This document shows, in pieces, positions 10,891 to 21,039 of a stretch of 21,039 nucleotides of DNA. A model generated the notes under the pieces. It did no database searches, was not told the origin of the DNA, and saw nothing but the letters and a program-made list of their open reading frames with translations. Numbering within the stretch: the first letter of the stretch is position 1; each line of letters begins with the position of its first letter. The translations under genes and the position numbers were made by a program. This DNA comes from a virus, in the IMG/VR virus record IMGVR_UViG_3300045988_137034, positions 1 to 21,039 of that record; one strand, 5' to 3'.

Positions 10891-11220
10891 TTAATTAATA
10901 AGTTTGTATATAACATCTATCAACTTAGTAGATGCATCTTTTAATAATATCATAATATCTTTAATAATTGGAGTCATAAATGCTAATAATGCAATATATC
11001 CAACCATTAAAATTGAAAATTGACTTGTAATAAGAATATATAGTAATCCAATTCACCAAGTCATACACAAACTGCAATCTAAAGGTTTGAGTCTTCAATC
11101 TTCTTTATATGGTATACCTTTAAATAGCATTTTTCAAATACTATGTTTAAAACTATCTAAAGCTCCAGATAAATCAATTATAAAAACTATTATTGCAGTT
11201 ATTATAAATAATTCTAACAT
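10891..11220 (-). CDS. Small multi-pass membrane protein (109 aa) with a C-x-x-C...WW motif; 3 in-frame TGA
   Basis: From ATG 11220..11218 to TAA 10893..10891, every triplet was checked. TGAs at 11134-11136, 11095-11097 and 11053-11055. Translation: MLELFIITAIIVFIIDLSGALDSFKHSI-W-KMLFKGIPYKED-W-RLKPLDCSLCMTW-W-IGLLYILITSQFSILMVGYIALLAFMTPI.... It resembles the KP-x-x-C-x-x-C-x-x-W membrane family (DUF1360-like, recollection only). Confidence 0.55.
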
Positions 11221-11699
11221 AATCTTCATACATAATTATAACCTGTTTTATATTTGCCATATAAACAAGCTCGAATTGAATAATCACACTTACCTAAAGC
11301 TTCCGCAGCTTCTTTAATAGAATTATACTTTTTAACTAGAGTTCCGTTAAGATCATATTGAGCTACAGGTTTTGAAAGGTAAGAAGAAATCTTTTTATTT
11401 CTAGTTCCATAATTTGTATTATATTTCCTAGTACATCATTCTAGATTTTCAACTCTATTGTTTAACTTATTTTCGTCAATATGGTTTACTTCTGGTAAAT
11501 TATATATATTTGGTATAAATGTTTCAGCTACTAATCTATGTATAGACTTCATTTTAACTTTTCCATTTTTTCATAGTCCTACTGCTAAGTAGTTATTTCT
11601 AATAGTAGGTTTAATAAATTTATTTGTCCTTATACTATAAACTTCTCCGATATTATTTACTTTATAAAGACCTTCATAATTAGCTATATCCTTCCACAT
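11214..11699 (-). CDS. HNH homing endonuclease (161 aa); 3 in-frame TGA
   Basis: MWKDIANYEGLYKVNNIGEVYS (NUMOD4-like N-terminus), IHRLVAETF, EVNHIDENKLNNRVENLE-W-CTRKYN (HNH_3-type motif, with W encoded by TGA at 11436-11438), and a C-terminal HTH-like region. Other TGAs at 11571-11573 and 11226-11228. Ends in TAG at 11214-11216. The start overlaps the upstream gene by 16 nt. Confidence 0.85.
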
Positions 11700-11938
11700 A
11701 TTTTATTTCTAATATTACTTATACACCTTGCTATGGTAGTATGACTAATTCCTAATATTCTTCCAACTTCTCTATAACTGTGATATTCAGCATATAATAT
11801 GATTACTGTCTTATCTGCCTTATTAAGCTCAAGCCATTTTGGATATATACTTAATAATCTGTCATCTGTATTCGTAAACATATCATAGTCTATTTCATAC
11901 TCATTAAGTAAATCATCAATATTAATCTTCCTTTTCAT
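11684..11938 (-). CDS. Sigma-70 region-4-like / LuxR-type HTH transcription regulator (84 aa)
   Basis: ...DKTVIILYAEYHSYREVGRILGISHTTIARCISNIRNKI matches the region-4 HTH pattern. Intact standard ORF ending in TAG. Both ends are overlapped by HNH genes. Confidence 0.55.
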   Translation of the reverse strand: MKRKINIDDLLNEYEIDYDMFTNTDDRLLSIYPKWLELNKADKTVIILYAEYHSYREVGRILGISHTTIARCISNIRNKICGRI

Positions 11939-12437
11939 AATACTTTCATTTAAATCCTTTGGAAGTTAATTGTCTTCCTTTTAAACAAGCAATAATGTTT
12001 GATATAACAAATCCATTTCTCTTTAATTCATTTATTGAAGGTCATACTTTAATAATATTGTTATCTGTATCTAACTGCACAATTCGCTTGGAGCTTTTAT
12101 TATTCTGGCAGTTTTTAACAAAATTATTAATTCTATTGCCGTAAGTAAGATTATAAGACCTTGTACATCATTCTAAGTTTTCTATAACATTATTGCATTT
12201 ATTTTCATCAATATGATTTATTTCACAATAACTGTTAGGATTTGAAAGAAACGCTTCTGCTACTAGTCGATGTATATAAAAATTTTTTCTACCTTGTTTA
12301 TTATATAAACAAACAAAAGAATATCCACTATTGGATTGCATAGGTTTAATAACTCCTCTAACACTTTTAACTCTGCCTAAAGTGCTAATCTGGTAGTTCG
12401 GGTAATTCGTTATATTCTTCCAGATCTCCATCATCAT
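11922..12437 (-). CDS. HNH homing endonuclease (171 aa); 3 in-frame TGA
   Basis: Track ORF 12168..12437 stops at NVIENLE-TGA. The frame continues -W-CTRSYNLTYGNRINNF...IIKV-W-PSINELKRNGF...KGFK-W-KYYEKED-TAA. TGAs at 12168-12170, 12042-12044 and 11946-11948. IHRLVAEAF and EINHIDENKCNN are paralogous to the 11214..11699 copy. Confidence 0.85.
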
Positions 12438-12699
12438 TAATTTTATCTGTTATAAAAATATCATAATATCGTTTATATGCATAATAGTATCTGCTATTCT
12501 TACTGAACCAGTTGTTTTTAAATACTCTTACAATTCAGTATTTTAATTCATTTTTGGCCAATAAACTATTTAATTTGGCATTATCTGTCTCTAGTAAAGC
12601 CAGTAGACAAATTTGAAAACAATCATCATCCATCCCAAATTTAACCTTTAGTTCTAAGCAGAATTCATAATATTTGGTAATAATTTCATTATTCGTCAT
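12385..12699 (-). CDS. Hypothetical protein (104 aa); 1 in-frame TGA
   Basis: From ATG 12699..12697 to TAG 12387..12385, every triplet was checked. TGA at 12535-12537 (…NELKY-W-IVRVFKNNWF…). It fills an otherwise uncoded 250-nt gap. Its 3' end overlaps the HNH start by about 50 nt. Confidence 0.45.
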
Positions 12700-13460: not shown

Positions 13461-14207
13461 TTAAAATTCAAAAATATCTTTATTGTCGTATTCAATATCT
13501 TGTTTTCTGTCTAATCCAAATAAACCAGCAAGTATGTCATTATAGATATTATTAGCTTTTGGACTTAAATAAAGCTTATTCTTTACAAAATAAACGGTTT
13601 GCTTATATAATTTATTATCAGAGGGAGTAGAAAGCACATTCTTAATAGTTCTAATATTCTGCTCATTTAAATGCACTACTTCATTCTTAATAAACTCTTC
13701 ATATCTTATCTGATAACCATCTTCTACTTTATCTAAGTAAAATCCATACTCTTTTAGCTTATTAAGCTTATTATTTAATAGATTATATGTAATATCTAAT
13801 TCTTTAGCTATATCCTTCTTATTTAACTTAATTTTTAAAGTATCATCAAATGCCAAACTTCTAATTCTTAAGGCAAATCCCAATAAATTTAGATCCTTAT
13901 CAATATTATTAATTACAAAATCTAATTTAACCATAAAAAATGTATTTAGTATTGATTTATAGGTATTAGTCTTTATAACATTACCATTATCTTTAATTAT
14001 AACCTTAGTAGAGCAGTCTAATAACTCTGCTTTATAAAGATGACTATTCATCTTTTTAATATAATCTACAGAGCATTTTAAATACTTTGCAAAGTAATCT
14101 CTTGTATATACTTTATTTTGAAGCTGTGTATAAGATTGTAAAGCCATATAATATGCTTCTTTGTCATTCAAATCCTTTACTCGTTTATCAATTTTTAAAT
14201 AAATCAT
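13461..14207 (-). CDS. Winged-HTH DNA-binding protein, replication-initiator-like candidate (248 aa); no TGA and no Trp at all
   Basis: Intact ORF ending in TAA. HTH-like KKDIAKELDITYNLLNNKLNKLKEYGF. It sits directly beside the iteron-like repeat cluster at 14254-14326. The function is inferred from context only. Confidence 0.4.
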   Translation of the reverse strand: MIYLKIDKRVKDLNDKEAYYMALQSYTQLQNKVYTRDYFAKYLKCSVDYIKKMNSHLYKAELLDCSTKVIIKDNGNVIKTNTYKSILNTFFMVKLDFVINNIDKDLNLLGFALRIRSLAFDDTLKIKLNKKDIAKELDITYNLLNNKLNKLKEYGFYLDKVEDGYQIRYEEFIKNEVVHLNEQNIRTIKNVLSTPSDNKLYKQTVYFVKNKLYLSPKANNIYNDILAGLFGLDRKQDIEYDNKDIFEF

Positions 14208-14253
14208 AGTGCTAAATTTTTTACTGGAACGAAAGCTCGAAGAGCTGAGTCCT

Positions 14254-14287
14254 ATAGTATTACTTTTATTATAGTATTACTTTTATT
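14254..14287. repeat. Perfect tandem direct repeat, 2 x 17 nt (ATAGTATTACTTTTATT)
   Basis: Copies at 14254-14270 and 14271-14287 are identical, in the divergent intergenic region. Confidence 0.9.
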
Positions 14288-14290
14288 AAT

Positions 14291-14326
14291 GGGTACTGAA
14301 TCGACAGGTCGGTCGGGTACTGAATC
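14291..14326. repeat. Two identical 12-nt direct repeats (GGGTACTGAATC) separated by a 12-nt GC-rich spacer
   Basis: Copies at 14291-14302 and 14315-14326. The spacer gacaggtcggtc, together with its flanking bases, can form a small CGAC/GTCG hairpin. This is locally the most GC-rich stretch of an otherwise AT-rich region. Confidence 0.9.
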
Positions 14327-14344
14327 AATATATGTCTAAAAATA

Positions 14345-14369
14345 GGGTTTGGGTAGCTAATCCAAACCC
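14345..14369. terminator. Hairpin GGGTTTGG-(9 nt)-CCAAACCC with A-tract/T-tract flanks; terminator-like element in a divergent intergenic region
   Basis: Arms at 14345-14352 and 14362-14369, preceded by AAAAATA and followed by CTTTT. No gene on either strand obviously runs into it, so its role is unclear (terminator of a short RNA, or part of an origin). Confidence 0.4.
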
Positions 14370-14543
14370 CTTTTAGCACTAATAAAAGTAGTAATTATTT
14401 CTAATTACAAGGCAAAGATAACATTATTTTTTTTAAAATCAAAATTTTTACAATAAAAAAATAACTTTTTATTAAAAATATTTTATTAAAAATAATATTA
14501 CAATTCTTGAATATATTATATATTAATAAAAAAGAATAAAATT

Positions 14544-15329
14544 ATGAATTGGAAATCAACAAACATTAAAGGATATTCAGTTAGTGATGAAGGTCAAATA
14601 AAGAACGAACTAACAGGAAAAGTATTATCTCAGTTTAAGAATAATATGGGGTATTATTTAGTAAGCATACAAGATAAAAAGTATCTTGTACATAGATTAG
14701 TAGCAGAGGCGTTTTTAAATAAACCTAATAAATGTAATATAGTAGAACATAAAGATGATGATCCCACAAATAATTGTGTAGATAATCTTATGTGAAGTAC
14801 TCAGAAATTGAATTTAAATAGGCAAGGAAGGCTTGAAAAGTTAAAAAGGCATTATCAGTCCAATGAATGAAAAGAAGCTAGAAAAAAGGCTTTAGAAACA
14901 ATGAAAGCAAATGGATTTAAAAAGACTAAATCAGATAAGCAAAAGGCTAAAGAAGCGGCCAGATTAGATAGAATATCTAAAGAAAGAGAGAATATAAGAC
15001 CTACTCTCGACCAACAATATGATGCGTTTATTAATCCTTTAATTGATTTACTTAAATCTGGATATAGTTTAAAGAGAGCTGCACAATATTTTGGAATAAA
15101 TGATACTACTGGCATTACTTATTTTTCTAAAAGATATTATGAAGAAACAGGAATTAAACTTATTACATATAAGATTAAAAAATCGTCGTTTTCAAATGCA
15201 GAAAAATTAATGAATAAAATTAAAGAATTATATAATCAAGGTTTAACTGTAGAGGAAATAAGTGAAGAAGTAAATAGATCAATTAATATTGTTAATAAGT
15301 ATATAAAACTATGGAAGATTCATATTTAA
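14544..15329 (+). CDS. HNH homing endonuclease with extended C-terminal HTH region (261 aa); 2 in-frame TGA
   Basis: Track ORFs 14544..14795 and 14901..15329 are in frame (offset 357 nt). The junction reads ...NNCVDNLM-W-STQKLNLNRQGRLEKLKRHYQSNE-W-KEARKKALETMKANG..., with TGAs at 14793-14795 and 14868-14870. LVHRLVAEAF and VEHKDDDPTNNCVDNLMW form the HNH_3-type core. HTH-like SLKRAAQYFGIN and LTVEEISEEVNRSINIV. Ends in TAA at 15327-15329. Confidence 0.8.
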
Positions 15330-15817: not shown

Positions 15818-16408
15818 TTAAGCGTATTTTCATTTAAATCCTTTTACTTTATAGCCTTCTCTAATTGCTTTAGAAATAGAATTTTTATGAACTCCAACAT
15901 CTAAAGAAGCACTAACAGCACAGTCATATTCTTTAATAAGAATATCGTCTTTATACGCACCTACTTTTTTAGCTCTAGGATTATTGCCAAAAGAATTATT
16001 TAAATAACTCAAATCTTTACCTTTATGACTATTACTCATCTTTTTTCGAGTTTCTTCTGATGGATGTCTTCCAATACATTTGGCTCTAATCTTATCTTTT
16101 CTTTCCTGAGTGAATGCAATACCTAAGGTGCCGTCACCTCCATCTGTAGCATTATATCCATATTTGGGATCTCTAGTATTATATTTATGAATAAGAATTT
16201 TTTCTAAAGTCTTGGCACAAGGTTCTGGCAAATTATCTTTAATTATAATATGTTCAAAATTATCCCATCCATATTTTGTTATAGCGTTTCAAAACGGCTG
16301 TTTTCTATAACCAAGACCATTTGCTCATCGTATTTCTGGCTTCTTACAAGTAATGCCAATATATTTCTTACCATTAATCTTGTTTAAATGAATATATATA
16401 CTATACAT
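15818..16408 (-). CDS. GIY-YIG homing endonuclease (196 aa); 3 in-frame TGA
   Basis: MYSIYIHLNKINGKKYIGITCKKPEIR-W-ANGLGYRKQPF-W-NAITKYGWDNFEHIIIKDNLPEPCAK...KVKGFK-W-KYA-TAA. TGAs at 16325-16327, 16289-16291 and 15830-15832. GIY (IYIH) and YIG motifs, the R-W and KYGWDNF motifs, and NUMOD-like HxSEETRKKMS are present. The track ORF 15830..16231 is only the middle piece. The ATG at 16408 overlaps the endolysin stop. Confidence 0.85.
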
Positions 16409-16850
16409 ACAAATTACCTTTTTTTCTTCGTTGTAGTCCTTTAATACTATATAAAGCAATATGCACTCACTGAGATGTACGACTTTTTTCTATAAAGCAT
16501 TCGTCAAAATTATAATTCTCTATTTCATCTGTTATTCATACTTGGAATATCTTCATTTGACCGTTACTTGGAATTATATCTGCTGCATATCCTGTTAGAT
16601 GGGCAGATGTCAAAGATCCTCCTACAGCTTTATTAAGCTCATTACATCTATAACCTGAATTCACACTTATTGCTGGATTCCCCAACCGATTAACATCACA
16701 ATACTCTGCCCAATCACTTCTTAATGGATCTAAAAGTTTCTCGACTAACTCTATAAGGTGTTCAGTAATCTCTTTATTTGGAGTATTATCTATCTTCTTA
16801 ATAGAAGCTGTATCAGATCTTGTTAATTCACTAATAGTAAAATATTTCAT
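16401..16850 (-). CDS. Endolysin, zinc peptidase M15 family (149 aa); 2 in-frame TGA
   Basis: SGYRCNELNKAVGGSLTSAHLTGYAADI carries the H-x6-D zinc motif. The track ORF stops at ...MKIFQV-TGA (16536-16538). The frame continues -W-ITDEIENYNFDECFIEKSRTSQ-W-VHIALYSIKG...-TAG (16401-16403), with the second TGA at 16467-16469. W-V-H supplies the expected C-terminal His ligand region of this family. Confidence 0.8.
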
Positions 16851-17011
16851 TATTTAATAATATCTTTAAGCATAACATAACGGTAAAATAAATGACATCC
16901 TGCACCAAGTGCTATGAGTACTAATGTAATCCAAAATGGAATTACTTTTACCATTAAACATACTAAGATTATAATTACTATTGCTATTAAATATTTCATC
17001 CAATATTTCAT
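16850..17011 (-). CDS. Holin candidate (53 aa, two TM helices)
   Basis: MKYWMKYLIAIVIIILVCLMVKVIPFWITLVLIALGAGCHLFYRYVMLKDIIK. Its TAA overlaps the endolysin ATG as TAATG. No TGA. It is below the ORF-track size cutoff. Confidence 0.6.
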   Translation of the reverse strand: MKYWMKYLIAIVIIILVCLMVKVIPFWITLVLIALGAGCHLFYRYVMLKDIIK

Positions 17012-17014
17012 AAC

Positions 17015-17668
17015 TTATTTATTTAAAATTATACTTACTTTAATTCCTGCATCTCTTAGTTTTACTCAAGTATCAACTGGCATCTCATTATCACAATAAG
17101 ATAATCCTAAAACTCCAATATCCCTATCTTCTGACTTTAAATAGAATATTGCAATCTTATTAACATCATTAGATTTAAATGTATAATACATTCTCCTATC
17201 TAATTCCTTTATATCTTCAACATCTCCCAATCATCCTCCTTTTTTAGATGTTTCCAATATAAATAAATAATCAGATAATAGGAAATCTTTATAGTGTTTA
17301 GAAACTGAAGCAACTCCAGGTTCTGTTTCTTCACTATTCATAATCCCATAAGTAAATGGAAGTCCTCCTAATCCTGAAGTGCCATTATGATACTCAATAA
17401 CTCAAGCTCTATCTGCATTCGTATCATTTAAAAGATCTTTAAGGATATATCTAACCTTAAGATCTGCTTCTTGTCTTATTAATTGATTAGTATTATGGAC
17501 CGTTTTTATATAGTTTGTAACTTTATCATATATTATTCCTGGATTAGTACTTATAATTATTACATAAGAAATAAATATAAATCCAAATCCACCTTTAATT
17601 ATTTTTCACAGTCCATATTTATCTACTCATTCTAATACCTTTCCAAACCAGTTTAATTTATTTTCCAT
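17015..17668 (-). CDS. N-terminally membrane-anchored protein (217 aa) heading the lysis cassette; 5 in-frame TGA, invisible in the standard-code track
   Basis: From ATG 17668..17666 (TAATG overlap with the upstream GIY-YIG stop) to TAA 17017..17015, every triplet was checked. TGAs at 17627-17629, 17606-17608, 17402-17404, 17231-17233 and 17066-17068. MENKLNWFGKVLE-W-VDKYGL-W-KIIKGGFGFIFISYVIIISTNPG.... Function unknown. Confidence 0.5.
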
Positions 17669-18252
17669 TACATATCATACTTAAAGGTATATCCTTTAGT
17701 TTGTTTTTGTCTGCCACTTAAAACTGAAGATATTAAAGAAGAAGTTATGTTTAACTCTCTTGCTGCTGATCTTATACTTTTATAAGATTTTATAAATCTT
17801 CCATCTAAAGTGTATTGACTAATAGCTTTAGTTCCATAGTTTTGATTTTTCTTGCGTATTAATTCCTTAGTTTCTTCTGAATGATGCTTCCCATAAAATG
17901 GATTTTTATTTCCTATTCTAGTTTTAGCAAATTCAGAAATAATAACTTTAGTTTCATTAGAAACTATCGGATGATTACTTGTGTCAGTTCTATTATAACC
18001 AAATCTTAAATCTGTAGTATTATAATAGCTAAAGAAGTATTTTTCAAGATATTTCATTTCCGATTCACTATTTACATAATAAATAGTGTGTTTAATATTG
18101 TTTCAACCGTACTTTTTAATTGGTCTGTAAACAAATTGATCTTTATATCCTTCTCCACCTCTTCATCTACTATTTACTGACTGAGTGGTTAATCCAACAT
18201 ATCTTTTACCATTTGGAAAAGTATGAATATAAACTACATACTGTCTTGACAT
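17668..18252 (-). CDS. GIY-YIG homing endonuclease (194 aa); 2 in-frame TGA
   Basis: MSRQYVVYIHTFPNGKRYVGLTTQSVNSR-W-RGGEGYKDQFVYRPIKKYG-W-NNIKHTIYYVNSESEMKYLEKYFF.... TGAs at 18163-18165 and 18103-18105. NUMOD-like GKHHSEETKELIRKK and a C-terminal HTH. The ATG at 18252 overlaps the upstream gene by 19 nt. Confidence 0.85.
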
Positions 18253-18660: not shown

Positions 18661-19152
18661 TTAAATGTATTTAAAAGTTAATTTATTCTTATATTTTCTA
18701 CCTGTTTTTAAACAGTAACGTATACTTTTAGAGTCTATATTTAACCTACGAGCACATTCATTAATAGATGGATATTCTATATCATTACATAATATTTTAT
18801 GAGATTGCTTATAAATTGAATACCTAGTATTATATGAAATAGTACACCATTCTAGATTACATACTCGATCGTCATTCTTTACTTCATTTTTATGATTAAC
18901 AACTGGATAGTTAAATGGATTCTCTATAAAAGCATATGCTACTAATCTACATACTCTATAATAGTAGGGTTTACTATCTTTCATTAAAGTAACCCACTTA
19001 TATCCATCTTTATCAATGTTAGGTTTTAAAATACGCTCATTTACTGGGCAAATACACCCATTCTTACTAAGTCTAGCTCTTGCAACTGATTTAACTTCTC
19101 CAGAATCACTCACTTGGTAATAACCTTCAAAGTCTTTAATATCTTTCCACAT
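18661..19152 (-). CDS. HNH homing endonuclease (163 aa), the only endonuclease here with no TGA
   Basis: MWKDIKDFEGYYQVSDSGEVKS (NUMOD4-like), VCRLVAYAF, VVNHKNEVKNDDRVCNLEWCTISYN (all three Trp encoded by TGG), and a C-terminal HTH INECARRLNIDSKSIRYCL. Confidence 0.85.
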   Translation of the reverse strand: MWKDIKDFEGYYQVSDSGEVKSVARARLSKNGCICPVNERILKPNIDKDGYKWVTLMKDSKPYYYRVCRLVAYAFIENPFNYPVVNHKNEVKNDDRVCNLEWCTISYNTRYSIYKQSHKILCNDIEYPSINECARRLNIDSKSIRYCLKTGRKYKNKLTFKYI

Positions 19153-19154
19153 AA

Positions 19155-19817
19155 TTACTTTTTCTTATTCTTATTTGAACTTGGAAAATCATATCTAGAT
19201 CTTAGAGAATTATTATATAGTCCCTTCGAGCGTATACCTCCAAGCCAGATACCACAACTACTTGAACTGTATAAATTAGGATACATATCTTTAAGAGGTT
19301 TATATGAATATAATTCAGGAAAATCATTATAATATGTAATAACCCAATCTTGTAGTCTTGCTTTAAAGAAATCTGCTTTATCTCTATAATATTTCTTAAT
19401 AAGATTAACTTGACTTGCATCTGCAGCTATATCTTTCTCATCATCAGTCCTCATAACTCCAAAATTACTAAGTTTAAAAGAGATAGGAATAGTAATTTCA
19501 CTTAATACTTGATAAAGTAAATAAGGCTGAATATAGTAATCTAATAATTCTTTATATCTATGATTTTCTGGATCATCTATAGATGTTGGATCATAAATAG
19601 GAGGTTCTATTGGATGAACTGGTTTATTTGGATCTTTCCAATCAATTACTAATTTCTGAATCTTCTCTAAGAGCTTAGTTCCAATTAATGACTGAAGCTC
19701 AATATCTTGTGCAAGTTTGATTGCAGACTGAAGATATTTACCAGAAACATTATTATCTAAATTAGATTCTGATTTTATATAATCTTCAGATATTAATAGT
19801 ACATTTCTATATTCCAT
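19155..19817 (-). CDS. Head-tail connector/adaptor-like protein (220 aa)
   Basis: The N-terminal pattern LISEDYIKSESNLDNNVSGKYLQSAIKLAQDIELQSLIG resembles gp6-like connector N-termini, and the gene lies downstream of the portal. Motif-level call only. Confidence 0.4.
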   Translation of the reverse strand: MEYRNVLLISEDYIKSESNLDNNVSGKYLQSAIKLAQDIELQSLIGTKLLEKIQKLVIDWKDPNKPVHPIEPPIYDPTSIDDPENHRYKELLDYYIQPYLLYQVLSEITIPISFKLSNFGVMRTDDEKDIAADASQVNLIKKYYRDKADFFKARLQDWVITYYNDFPELYSYKPLKDMYPNLYSSSSCGIWLGGIRSKGLYNNSLRSRYDFPSSNKNKKK

Positions 19818-20460
19818 AATAATATTTATAATTTTTGCAGGGTTTATTTTTTCTACAAGATCTAGATATACTAGAAGAATCTACATTATTCTTCTCTCCA
19901 GCTTCCTTAGCTGATTTATACTCACAAATAAAATTACCATCTAAATCATACTTATATACTTTTTTGCACTGACGTTCTGAAATTAGTTGTTTTTCTTTAT
20001 CTGAGAGTTTCATACCTTTATTTCAAGGAGTTTTGCCTAATCTTGCCTCCCTCATTTTACGCTTGCTTTCATCTGAATGCTGTTTACCATAAAATGAGTT
20101 ATTTTCTCCTGATCTTATAATTCTAAGACTATCTTTATAATCTTGTGAAAAAGAATATCCACAAGTACCGTCTCCTCCATCAGTTAAATTATACCCATAT
20201 TTTGGATTTCTAGTATTATACTTATAAATCAGAATCTTTTCTAAAGTCTTAGCACAAGCTTCTGGAAGATTATCTCTAATTATAATATGCTCAAAATTAT
20301 CTCAACCATATTTTTTAATTGCTCTGCTAAAATAAAGATTATTCTTGTAACCTTGACCTTTAGTTCCCCATCTATTATTTAAAGTAAGTGATGTTATTCC
20401 AAAATATAATTTATTATCAGCTATATTCTTATGGCAGTACACTGTATAATTATTCAACAT
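19807..20460 (-). CDS. GIY-YIG homing endonuclease (217 aa); 2 in-frame TGA
   Basis: MLNNYTVYCHKNIADNKLYFGITSLTLNNRWGTKGQGYKNNLYFSRAIKKYG-W-DNFEHIIIRDNLPEACAKTLEKILIYKYNTRNPKYGYNLTDGGDGT...GKTP-W-NKGMKLSDKEK.... TGAs at 20302-20304 and 20023-20025. The track shows only the last 68 aa. The ATG at 20460 overlaps the portal stop by 11 nt. Confidence 0.85.
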
Positions 20461-21039
20461 TTTCTGCATTTTCTGACATTCCTTTTGGAGTTAAACTAAA
20501 TGGTTCAATAGTAATACTATTCTTAATGCCGAAGATTTTATCAAATGAGTCACAAATTTCTGATTGTATTGGGCGTACAAAAGTACGATTATATAGCTTA
20601 AATGCTTCATTAAACTCATTTTCATTAAATCCTGAGCTATAGTTTAAACCGAACAACGAAGGATTAGCTCGGAAGGCACAGAATATTTGATCTCTTGTTC
20701 TTTCAGATAATGATTGATATTTTTCATCAAAATCATCAGAATCTAACCTTTCAATTGTGGTCTTATTTGCCTCATCTGCATTATATGAAATCAATATTCT
20801 GCCAGCATTCTGATAACCAGAGAACTTCTCATTAATATTCCTCTCAATCTCCTCTCTAATTTCATCTGTAGGCTCTCCATTATTAAAGTTAATAATAAGA
20901 TTGCCCATAAATCCATTATTGATATTGTTTAAATGGAACTCATTAATATTTTTCTCAGTTTCACAAGATAGAATAGCAGCTCCGTAAACAGGAATAGGAT
21001 ATACTCCTCTTGTTATATAACCTTTATTATAAAATATAC
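20450..21039 (-). CDS. Portal protein, C-terminal part (N-terminus beyond the window end)
   Basis: The frame is open from 21039. ...GVYPIPVYGAAILSCETEKNINEFHLNNINNGFMGNLIINFNNGEPTDEIREEIERNINEKFSGYQNAGRILISY... and ...FNENEFNEAFKLYNRTFVRPIQ... match the usual portal core/clip-region pattern as I remember it. Ends in TAA at 20450-20452. Confidence 0.65.
   Translation of the reverse strand, partial: IFYNKGYITRGVYPIPVYGAAILSCETEKNINEFHLNNINNGFMGNLIINFNNGEPTDEIREEIERNINEKFSGYQNAGRILISYNADEANKTTIERLDSDDFDEKYQSLSERTRDQIFCAFRANPSLFGLNYSSGFNENEFNEAFKLYNRTFVRPIQSEICDSFDKIFGIKNSITIEPFSLTPKGMSENAENVE

Follow-up and report, generated by a model that had tools for sequence, protein, structure and literature searches.

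A gut phage that reads TGA as tryptophan, with a putative holin-endolysin cassette, Bacteroidales-type host signals, and no detectable phage tRNA

Results

The lysis cassette

The stretch of viral DNA analysed here, which we call the window, comprises 21,039 nucleotides (IMG/VR record IMGVR_UViG_3300045988_137034, positions 1 to 21,039) and carries on its minus strand a two-gene lysis cassette whose second gene contains in-frame TGA codons. The first gene (16850–17011) encodes a 53-residue putative holin (MKYWMKYLIAIVIIILVCLMVKVIPFWITLVLIALGAGCHLFYRYVMLKDIIK), and the second (16401–16850) encodes a 149-residue zinc peptidase of the Peptidase_M15_3 family. The stop codon of the former and the ATG of the latter overlap by 1 nucleotide (TAATG), an arrangement in which the putative holin would be translationally coupled to the M15 endolysin. 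A previous reading of the window (the original prediction) had taken this cassette as the mark of a walled host, and had proposed that the phage reads TGA as tryptophan by means of a code of its own making.

The M15 protein matches Pfam PF08291 (E = 2.8e-14; 53.6 bits, the cutoff being 23.2) and the PHROG family phrog_894, annotated "endolysin" (E = 6e-27). H84, D91, and H130, which bind the zinc, do not vary in an 11-sequence alignment (A2), and neither does W128. It is 44–50% identical to the endolysins of the Bacteroides fragilis phages B124-14, B40-8, and BF10P2, which belong to the same families (Peptidase_M15_3, PHROG 894) and have the same H-x6-D...W-V-H zinc site; in those phages, as here, the enzyme is a small single-domain protein encoded in a late or lysis gene block. 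The assignment as an endolysin is well supported; muralytic activity and a role in lysis are suggested by the holin-like neighbor and by homology to annotated endolysins. Unlike the B124-14, B40-8, and BF10P2 enzymes, which are written in the standard code, the window endolysin has an insert of ~10 residues and needs two UGA codons to be read through.

The first of these codons is codon 105 (16536–16538, minus strand), where the open reading frame (ORF) of code 11, the standard bacterial code, comes to an end after 104 amino acids (16536–16850); in relatives this site is TGG in 15 and TGA in 2. The second, codon 128 (16467–16469, minus strand), specifies the tryptophan of the W-V/I-H motif two residues before H130. 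It is TGA in all seven relatives aligned at that site, and W128 is invariant also in the standard-code Bacteroides phages B124-14 and BF10P2. A stop at codon 105 would remove the third zinc ligand, H130, so that the enzyme can be made only if UGA is decoded. Because the endolysin is not makeable under the standard code, lysis depends on UGA decoding.

We infer that the 53-residue protein is a holin from its position, size, and topology. Two hydrophobic segments (approximately residues 6–21 and 24–38), separated by K-V, are followed by a basic C terminus, and the gene is kept as an ORF of 52–53 residues in 26 relatives. Searches of Pfam and PHROG matched it to no family, and the holin of the original prediction is therefore upheld by position, size, two-segment topology, and conservation, and not by membership in any Pfam or PHROG holin family. 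Both of its tryptophan codons in the window are TGG; family-wide, the count is 50 TGG and 1 TGA. In the lysis process envisaged, the putative holin would make lesions in the membrane, and the peptidase would cleave the cross-links of the peptidoglycan.

Upstream of the putative holin lies a gene for a 217-residue protein (17015–17668, minus strand) with an N-terminal hydrophobic segment, whose sole family match is phrog_30125, of unknown function. Its tryptophan codons are 5 TGA and 1 TGG in the window and 93 TGA and 60 TGG across the family; it is possibly associated with lysis. On the other side, the start of a GIY-YIG homing endonuclease gene (15818–16408, minus strand; Pfam GIY-YIG and NUMOD3 domains, three in-frame TGA codons) overlaps the 3' end of the endolysin gene. 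This gene is present in some relatives only.

TGA is read as tryptophan

In code 4, in which TGA specifies tryptophan, the ORFs of at least 80 residues in the window total 7613 amino acids, as against 5227 in code 11, and the longest ORF has 1149 residues instead of 499. The window is then tightly tiled with minus-strand ORFs, as fragments fuse into tail proteins of 1149 and 726 residues, a terminase of 427 residues, and others; in relatives, coding coverage rises from 0.58–0.60 to 0.87–0.89. The recoded gene set (1–21039, minus strand) contains 38 in-frame TGA codons in 17 of 28 genes, among them those for the tape measure, the two large tail proteins, the terminase, the endolysin, the homing endonucleases, and small early proteins. 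The exact tryptophan codon count, 38 TGA and 64 TGG, is within one codon of the hand count of about 65 TGG to 38 TGA reported previously. All gene stops in the window are TAA (19) or TAG (7).

Comparison with relatives, for which we rely on genes other than the last one (20450–21038), gives the meaning of the codon. Opposite the TGA codons of the window the relatives have TGG 70 times, and opposite its TGG codons they have TGA 125 times, whereas GGN is never found opposite a window TGA. Since TGA sites exchange with TGG and not with GGN, the codon means tryptophan and not glycine, as it would in code 25. On this comparative evidence TGA is read as tryptophan throughout the window. That this is a TGA-as-tryptophan phage with a predicted peptidoglycan hydrolase is borne out by the gain in coding under code 4, the exchanges with TGG, the invariant W128, and the Peptidase_M15_3 match.

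The use of TGA is uneven. It makes up 37% of tryptophan codons in the window and 40% across the family (range 36–40%), whereas other codon pairs ending in A or G are 67–94% A-ending in the window; TGA is therefore under-used relative to the mutational bias. Approximately 54% of genes contain it. Family-wide, it accounts for 0 of 52 tryptophan codons in the major capsid protein (MCP), 0 of 42 in p174, and 1 of 51 in the putative holin, is absent or nearly so in the scaffold, p141, and p79, and is over-represented in homing endonucleases and in a number of small genes. Early genes fall on both sides: p79, p44, p47, and, in relatives, a 573-residue helicase-like gene are free of TGA, and p60/p53 and p144 contain it.

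Extent of the phage genome

The window makes up two-thirds of the genome, which is ~31.6 kb long. From a scan of IMG/VR and from look-ups of identical proteins came dozens of contigs of 29–33 kb, their start points permuted. End-to-end overlaps join the window, L002, and L014/L019, and the contigs that carry the tape-measure gene (n > 100) reach a maximum length of 28–33 kb. In a sister lineage, whose record names read "human gut metagenome," two loci from a single scaffold together give a contiguous 31,085 bases, with every module included. Coverage of the full genome was assembled from more than 50 related contigs, and the phage occurs in hundreds of assemblies. Beyond the window lie genes for the prohead protease, scaffold, capsid, fiber, portal, two LRR-like proteins, and an additional HNH endonuclease. 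Non-coding DNA amounts to ~1.3 kb in total, occupied by terminator hairpins, promoters, and iteron-like repeats. The phage is virulent-looking, prevalent in the human gut, ~31–32 kb in length, and ~29% in GC content.

Search for tRNA and code-change genes

The original prediction had reported no tRNA in the window, and had placed a suppressor tRNA-Trp(UCA), and possibly genes for a release factor or an aminoacyl-tRNA synthetase, elsewhere in the genome. The former observation holds and the latter expectation fails. ARAGORN found no tRNA in the window or in 51 family loci (L001–L041 and L129–L138), although it recovered tRNAs in bacterial loci that served as a positive control, and Rfam gave no tRNA either at the gathering score or at E ≤ 10. 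In the protein set of the whole genome, Pfam detected no domain of a release factor or an aminoacyl-tRNA synthetase, the tryptophanyl-tRNA synthetase included. With more than 50 relatives and a small genome that is fully covered, the missing tRNA is not explained by incompleteness. UGA decoding must therefore come from outside a phage-encoded tRNA, release factor, or tryptophanyl-tRNA synthetase.

One candidate appeared when the ARAGORN threshold was relaxed to 80% of the score, a tRNA-like fold of 98 nucleotides (19603–19700, plus strand), which we rejected as a false positive. It lies antisense inside the coding sequence of a DUF6712 protein, and its "anticodon," which differs among relatives (CCA or TCA), is the reverse complement of a tryptophan codon. 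The stems are mismatched, and the fold, although it recurs, is one of dozens of noise matches at this threshold. Relaxed searches that included the intron and mitochondrial modes likewise returned only noise. A suppressor tRNA was also looked for in 60 of the 80 Bacteroidales loci with endolysin relatives, and none was found.

Signals of the host

Four independent kinds of signal bear on the host. The promoter sequence of the Bacteroides sigma-A factor has TTTG at about −33 and TAnnTTTG at −7 (PMC7366714), and the window has a single full match, TTTG-N19-TATCTTTG (14413–14443, minus strand), which sits in a divergent early intergenic region and is directed at the early operon of p248. L009, L011, and L022 keep this promoter; in other relatives the corresponding ~2.5-kb early region holds three or four exact copies, directly upstream of genes and in both orientations. 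In shuffled sequence the pattern TTTG-N19-21-TAnnTTTG is expected about once per 20 kb. The bare −7 motif is not enriched across the window (36 observed against 32 expected), so that the informative part is the full −33/−7 pattern together with its clustering.

Translation starts give a second signal. A duplex with the anti-Shine-Dalgarno sequence of −4.4 kcal/mol or stronger is possible at 2 of 26 starts, compared with 10.8% of random positions, and all nine of the starts listed earlier as lacking a Shine-Dalgarno sequence proved to be real gene starts; the absence of this element, at background level, is confirmed. Instead, A is found at position −3 in 74% of starts, at −13 in 76%, at −14 in 66%, and at −11 in 61%, against a background of 38%, and this A-rich signature is that of Bacteroidetes mRNAs (PMC7366714).

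The third signal comes from the endolysin. Its matches include 58 Bacteroides and 15 Prevotella phage records, and those that are best among cultured phages lie in Bacteroides fragilis, crAss-like, and Prevotella phages. When 185,579 species genomes were searched, Bacteroidales accounted for 71 of the 80 best cellular relatives. Alistipes prophage versions are the closest, and genomes of Prevotellaceae and Muribaculaceae also carry close relatives. An insert of ~10 residues (EYCDVNRLGN) is common to the window endolysin and the Alistipes prophage versions. Bacteroidales matches that cover only residues 1–92 were considered as recoded prophages and rejected; they are shorter, standard-code enzymes of the B124-14 type.

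Other phage proteins provide the fourth. Among 50,697 phage records, the portal has matches in Nonlabens phages and a single Bacteroides phage and in no others, so that its only cultured-phage relatives infect Bacteroidota, and the best matches of the GIY-YIG endonuclease are in crAss-like Bacteroides phages. Of the BACON-like repeats previously noted in the 726-residue tail protein there is a weak hint: the one suggestion from Pfam is a single sub-threshold BACON match (residues 339–392, E = 0.017; 15.5 bits, where the cutoff is 25), and a 430-residue fragment (P0291) of the homologous 728-residue protein of the sister lineage has a precomputed match to PF13004. TerL gave only distant tblastn matches (24–29% identity) to Thermus, haloarchaeal, and Pseudomonas phages, which are uninformative on the host.

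Together these signals strongly support a walled host of Bacteroidota type, specifically one of the Gram-negative Bacteroidales, as read from promoters, A-rich starts without Shine-Dalgarno sequences, and the relatives of the endolysin and portal. In this the earlier proposal, including its view that the code does not derive from a wall-less Mollicute, is sustained. Its premise that cells using code 4 lack walls is true of Mollicutes but no longer general. The cells known up to 2026 to read TGA as tryptophan are Mycoplasmatales, several reduced endosymbionts, two genera of Eggerthellaceae, and one family of Patescibacteriota (PMC13462651, PMC13092985); of these, the Eggerthellaceae genera, from mammalian guts, and the Patescibacteriota family are walled (PMC13462651, PMC13092985). 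Since walled code-4 bacteria are known, the possession of a wall is no longer in itself a reason to rule out a host that natively uses code 4. These walled exceptions, however, do not match the expression signals of the phage, and the published lists of code-4 lineages, for which several hundred thousand GTDB and GlobDB genomes were classified, name no Bacteroidota. We infer that the host uses the standard code.

Discussion

The locus itself is an ordinary holin-endolysin cassette, and the phage most likely joins a known class, the TGA-recoded gut phages with standard-code hosts. Borges et al. predicted that phages in which TGA has passed from stop to tryptophan infect standard-code Bacteroidetes and Firmicutes (bioRxiv 10.1101/2021.08.26.457843). 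Some of their clades are small (Garnet and Amethyst at ~34 kb, Topaz at ~22 kb), and codes 11, 15, and 4 coexist in several (bioRxiv 10.1101/2021.08.26.457843). The present phage resembles theirs in its low GC content, in having in-frame TGA aligned with tryptophan and never used as a stop, in the recoding of structural and lysis genes, in an apparently standard-code host, and in having near relatives with other codes (11 and 15). It is also like the 65% of their code-4 genomes in which no suppressor tRNA is detected: a TGA suppressor was present in 35% of those genomes (bioRxiv 10.1101/2021.08.26.457843) and in 15% of the table-4 phages of Cook et al. (PMC11210395), which leaves 65–85% of code-4 phage genomes without one (bioRxiv 10.1101/2021.08.26.457843; PMC11210395). 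TGA recoding is rare in a Dutch cohort, with 21 recoded contigs among 58,776 (PMC9610469). The differences are that here the absence of a tRNA extends over a small, fully covered genome and more than 50 relatives, that TGA occurs in early genes beside host-type promoters, and that the most abundant head proteins and the putative holin avoid TGA, whereas in the model of Borges et al. lysis genes are the most recoded.

A second comparison is with the crAss-like phages (Crassvirales), which likewise have Bacteroidales hosts, low GC content, and no Shine-Dalgarno sequences, and which share with this phage related GIY-YIG homing endonucleases and the hint of a BACON-type tail protein. In one of them, Suoliviridae cr114_1, from a group that reassigns TAG or TGA, the homologous M15 endolysin is 45% identical and is itself recoded, with three in-frame TAG codons at glutamine-like positions (L048 1501–1896, NC_055897.1), so that the same lysis enzyme has been recoded through a different stop codon in another Bacteroidales phage. 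Unlike the crAss-like phages, the present one has a genome three times smaller and unrelated head genes (the MCP has no tblastn match in INPHARED, and the portal matches are those to Nonlabens and Bacteroides phages), and unlike the published recoded crAss-like genomes, which are reported with suppressor tRNAs, it has none.

We favor, with a probability of roughly 0.7, the reading that this recoded phage infects Bacteroidales that use the standard code, that its lysis cassette is canonical, and that it has no tRNA of its own. The codes of its kin are in keeping with this. Portal relatives at 42–45% identity use either code 11 or a TAG recoding in which TGA is a stop, and such a mix of codes within a phage family fits a trait of the phage lineage better than one inherited from the host. 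"Phage-autonomous," the term of the original prediction, stands insofar as the code does not come from a Mollicute; autonomy as such is not demonstrated, and the tRNA, release-factor, and synthetase genes that had been expected are absent.

How UGA would be read in such a cell is a more tentative matter. One possible route is that host tRNA-Trp(CCA) reads UGA through near-cognate C:A pairing, and that this reading gains its efficiency from an early phage protein, itself encoded without TGA, which inactivates release factor 2 (RF2) or competes successfully with it; alternatively, a variant of the host tRNA-Trp, for example a form with a 4-bp anticodon stem, might serve in place of the phage protein. 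We lean toward this route, in which host tRNA-Trp is aided by a phage protein or is itself a variant, because the host looks standard-code, because the phage family changes its code itself, and because tRNA-Trp(CCA) with a 4-bp anticodon stem reads UGA in E. coli (PMC13092985), but we hold it at well under even odds. In Bacteroides oleiciplenus, a gene for such a 4-bp-stem tRNA-Trp(CCA) co-occurs with a normal one (PMC13092985). The genome has ~15 conserved TGA-free ORFs, among them p79, p111, p141, p130, p87, p219, p150, and the small genes p44/p47. A small phage protein acting in this way would neutralize RF2 or retune the host tRNA-Trp. Equally tentative is the more general proposition that UGA can pass from stop to tryptophan in a standard-code Bacteroidales cell without any phage tRNA, by means of such a protein or of a host tRNA-Trp variant.

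Several observations weigh against the reading that we favor. The published model of a code switch expects a clean standard-code early module, and none is seen: TGA is found in genes directly downstream of host-type early promoters, the p60/p53 gene has it at 27 of 28 tryptophan codons across relatives, and p144 has one TGA. Large genes carry many (~7.5 in each copy of the gene for the 1149-residue tail protein), so that decoding must be efficient, beyond simple leaky readthrough. If a tRNA competed with RF2, a bias toward contexts of weak termination would be expected, and the nucleotide after TGA, compared with that after TGG, displays no significant bias of this kind (p = 0.13). No phage protein has a recognizable link to translation. 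Finally, the link to the host is indirect. No match to a CRISPR spacer and no prophage was found, and a portal-profile scan of the 185,579 species genomes returned no relative, hence no prophage or binned copy.

The host might instead natively read UGA as tryptophan, either as an undescribed code-4 lineage with Bacteroidota-like signals or as a walled code-4 bacterium such as the Eggerthellaceae Equivita and Gorillivita. This is the simplest account of a complete genome without a tRNA, release factor, or synthetase, and it accommodates TGA in 54% of genes, early ones included; moreover, walled code-4 bacteria of mammalian guts do exist, with GC contents of 31–40% (PMC13462651), and Cook et al. 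offer this explanation for most of the table-4 phages without a suppressor tRNA (PMC11210395). We nevertheless consider it unlikely. A phage this prevalent should have a well sampled host, and no Bacteroidota appear in the code-4 lists compiled from so many genomes, whereas promoters, A-rich starts, and endolysin relatives indicate Bacteroidales and not Actinomycetota or Mollicutes. The share of TGA among tryptophan codons, far below the A-ending share of other pairs, is unlike that of long-adapted code-4 genomes, and the proportion of genes with TGA falls short of the average of ~90% in phages of hosts that natively read TGA as glycine (code 25). Sister phage lineages, moreover, are TAG-recoded or standard-code. 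Another rival is a wall-less Mollicute host, with the M15 protein serving as a structural domain or in some other non-lytic role. Mycoplasma and Spiroplasma phages typically combine a low GC content (here ~29%), TGA as tryptophan, and no suppressor tRNA, but in the present phage TGG is the majority codon, Shine-Dalgarno sequences are lacking, promoters and initiation signals are of Bacteroidota type, and the M15 protein is free-standing, with intact zinc ligands, a holin-like partner, and homology to Bacteroides-phage endolysins. No homology to phages of these hosts was found, and no Mycoplasma or Spiroplasma phage is named in the tallies or listed records of the portal, MCP, endolysin, and endonuclease searches. 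A Mollicute host is effectively refuted.

A decoder might, on the other hand, be carried by a phage. The genome could encode a non-canonical one that ARAGORN and Rfam miss, such as a split, permuted, intron-containing, or aberrant tRNA-Trp(UCA) or some other RNA. Borges et al., with suppressors in about a third of their code-4 genomes, propose undetected non-canonical tRNAs, and the fold at 19603–19700, with its CCA or TCA "anticodon," is a candidate of sorts. Yet that fold is an antisense, poorly stemmed, noise-level match, Rfam is silent even at E ≤ 10, and the ~1.3 kb of non-coding DNA is already filled, which makes a hidden decoder improbable. Or the suppressor tRNA-Trp(UCA) could be borrowed from another element in the cell, such as a prophage or a crAss-like phage with TGA recoding that infects at the same time, and this phage would depend on such a helper. 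The homing endonucleases, closest to those of crAss-like Bacteroides phages, TGA-rich, and variably present, suggest frequent co-infection and exchange within a recoded gene pool, and crAss-like phages of the same hosts are recoded, as the in-frame TAG codons of the cr114_1 endolysin attest. Direct evidence for such borrowing is nil, however; obligate co-infection is hard to square with very high prevalence and a consistent, separate contig of ~31 kb, and the Bacteroidales prophage regions that were scanned contain no suppressor tRNA. We regard helper dependence as very improbable.

TGA- and TAG-recoded gut phages are established, and for the decoding of the majority that lack a suppressor tRNA this phage provides a clean case, with its small and fully covered genome, its high prevalence, its lack of a tRNA, release factor, or synthetase, its Bacteroidales signals, and its UGA-dependent endolysin. 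If there is indeed no phage tRNA and the host is standard-code, the phage would represent a tRNA-independent route to a viral switch of the genetic code; if the host instead reads UGA natively, it would be the first such lineage of Bacteroidota. Should the host prove culturable, only a few dozen genes would have to be screened for the factor that switches the code.

Additional observations

Head genes differ in composition from the rest of the genome. Those for the MCP, scaffold, and p174 have a GC content of 38–40%, prefer G-ending codons, and have TGA in no relative. In the MCP gene (L019 1570–2475), 38% of A/G-ending pairs end in A, against ~80% elsewhere. This pattern fits selection on highly expressed genes or, alternatively, a costly decoding of TGA.

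Among the more distant relatives, L036 (IMGVR_UViG_3300021254_000412) has a portal with 42% identity and an M15 endolysin with 38% identity; it is TAG-recoded, with 12 in-frame TAG codons in an ORF of 967 residues, and uses TGA as a genuine stop. The standard-code relatives L034, L035, L037, and L038 have GC contents of 36–58%. At the nucleotide level, megablast of the whole window against the 50,697 phage records gave zero matches.

Two long contigs were considered as sources of host information and set aside. L129 and L135 are parts of a scaffold of 193,455 bp (ENA ERZ28596505 scaffold_39) that holds more than one tandem unit of the sister-lineage phage, the next unit having a different fiber gene. 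We rejected integration into a host as an explanation; the scaffold looks like a concatemer or an assembly artifact of strain variants, and so carries no host information. L043 (ENA ERZ28654966 scaffold_7, 412,459 bp) encodes an M15 homologue with 53% identity, the neighbors of which include genes for IF3, a sigma factor, thymidylate synthase, and an IS605-type TnpB; it is probably a megaphage and was rejected as a host source for that reason.

Approximately a fifth of the 21-kb window is taken up by seven free-standing genes for homing endonucleases, of which three are GIY-YIG and four HNH/NUMOD (11214–11699, 11922–12437, 14544–15329 on the plus strand, 15818–16408, 17668–18252, 18661–19152, and 19807–20469). 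Their presence differs among otherwise collinear relatives. They are rich in TGA, which makes up as much as 100% of their tryptophan codons, and they are therefore expressible only where TGA means tryptophan. One of the HNH genes (11922–12437) is inserted between the two parts of what appears to be a split sigma-factor-like gene (11684–12699), consisting of p104 (12385–12699) and an 84-residue protein with sigma-70 region-4 and HTH_50 matches (11684–11938); in L002 the two parts adjoin and overlap.

The early module has been swapped. In the window (13461–15329) it consists of p248 and an HNH endonuclease; most relatives, as seen in a comparison with L002 (3372–5821), have in its place the TGA-free DExH helicase-like gene of 573 residues and a T5orf172/MUG113 gene on the opposite strand. 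The divergent intergenic region beside the gene for p248, an HTH protein (13461–14207), spans positions 14208–14543 and contains, in addition to the Bacteroides-type promoter, a GC-rich hairpin (GGGGTTTGG...CCAAACCC) and two pairs of direct repeats, GATTCAGTACCC and AATAAAAGTAATACTATA, each present twice. The repeats look like iterons or operators, and the region may be an origin of replication. A further motif, absent from the window, is an identical 20-nucleotide sequence, TGAGTAAAAAACTTGACATT, at positions 252–271 and 8869–8888 of L019. Both copies are intergenic, one upstream of the head module and the other upstream of p130/portal, and the motif may be a phage-specific promoter, middle or late, or another regulatory site.

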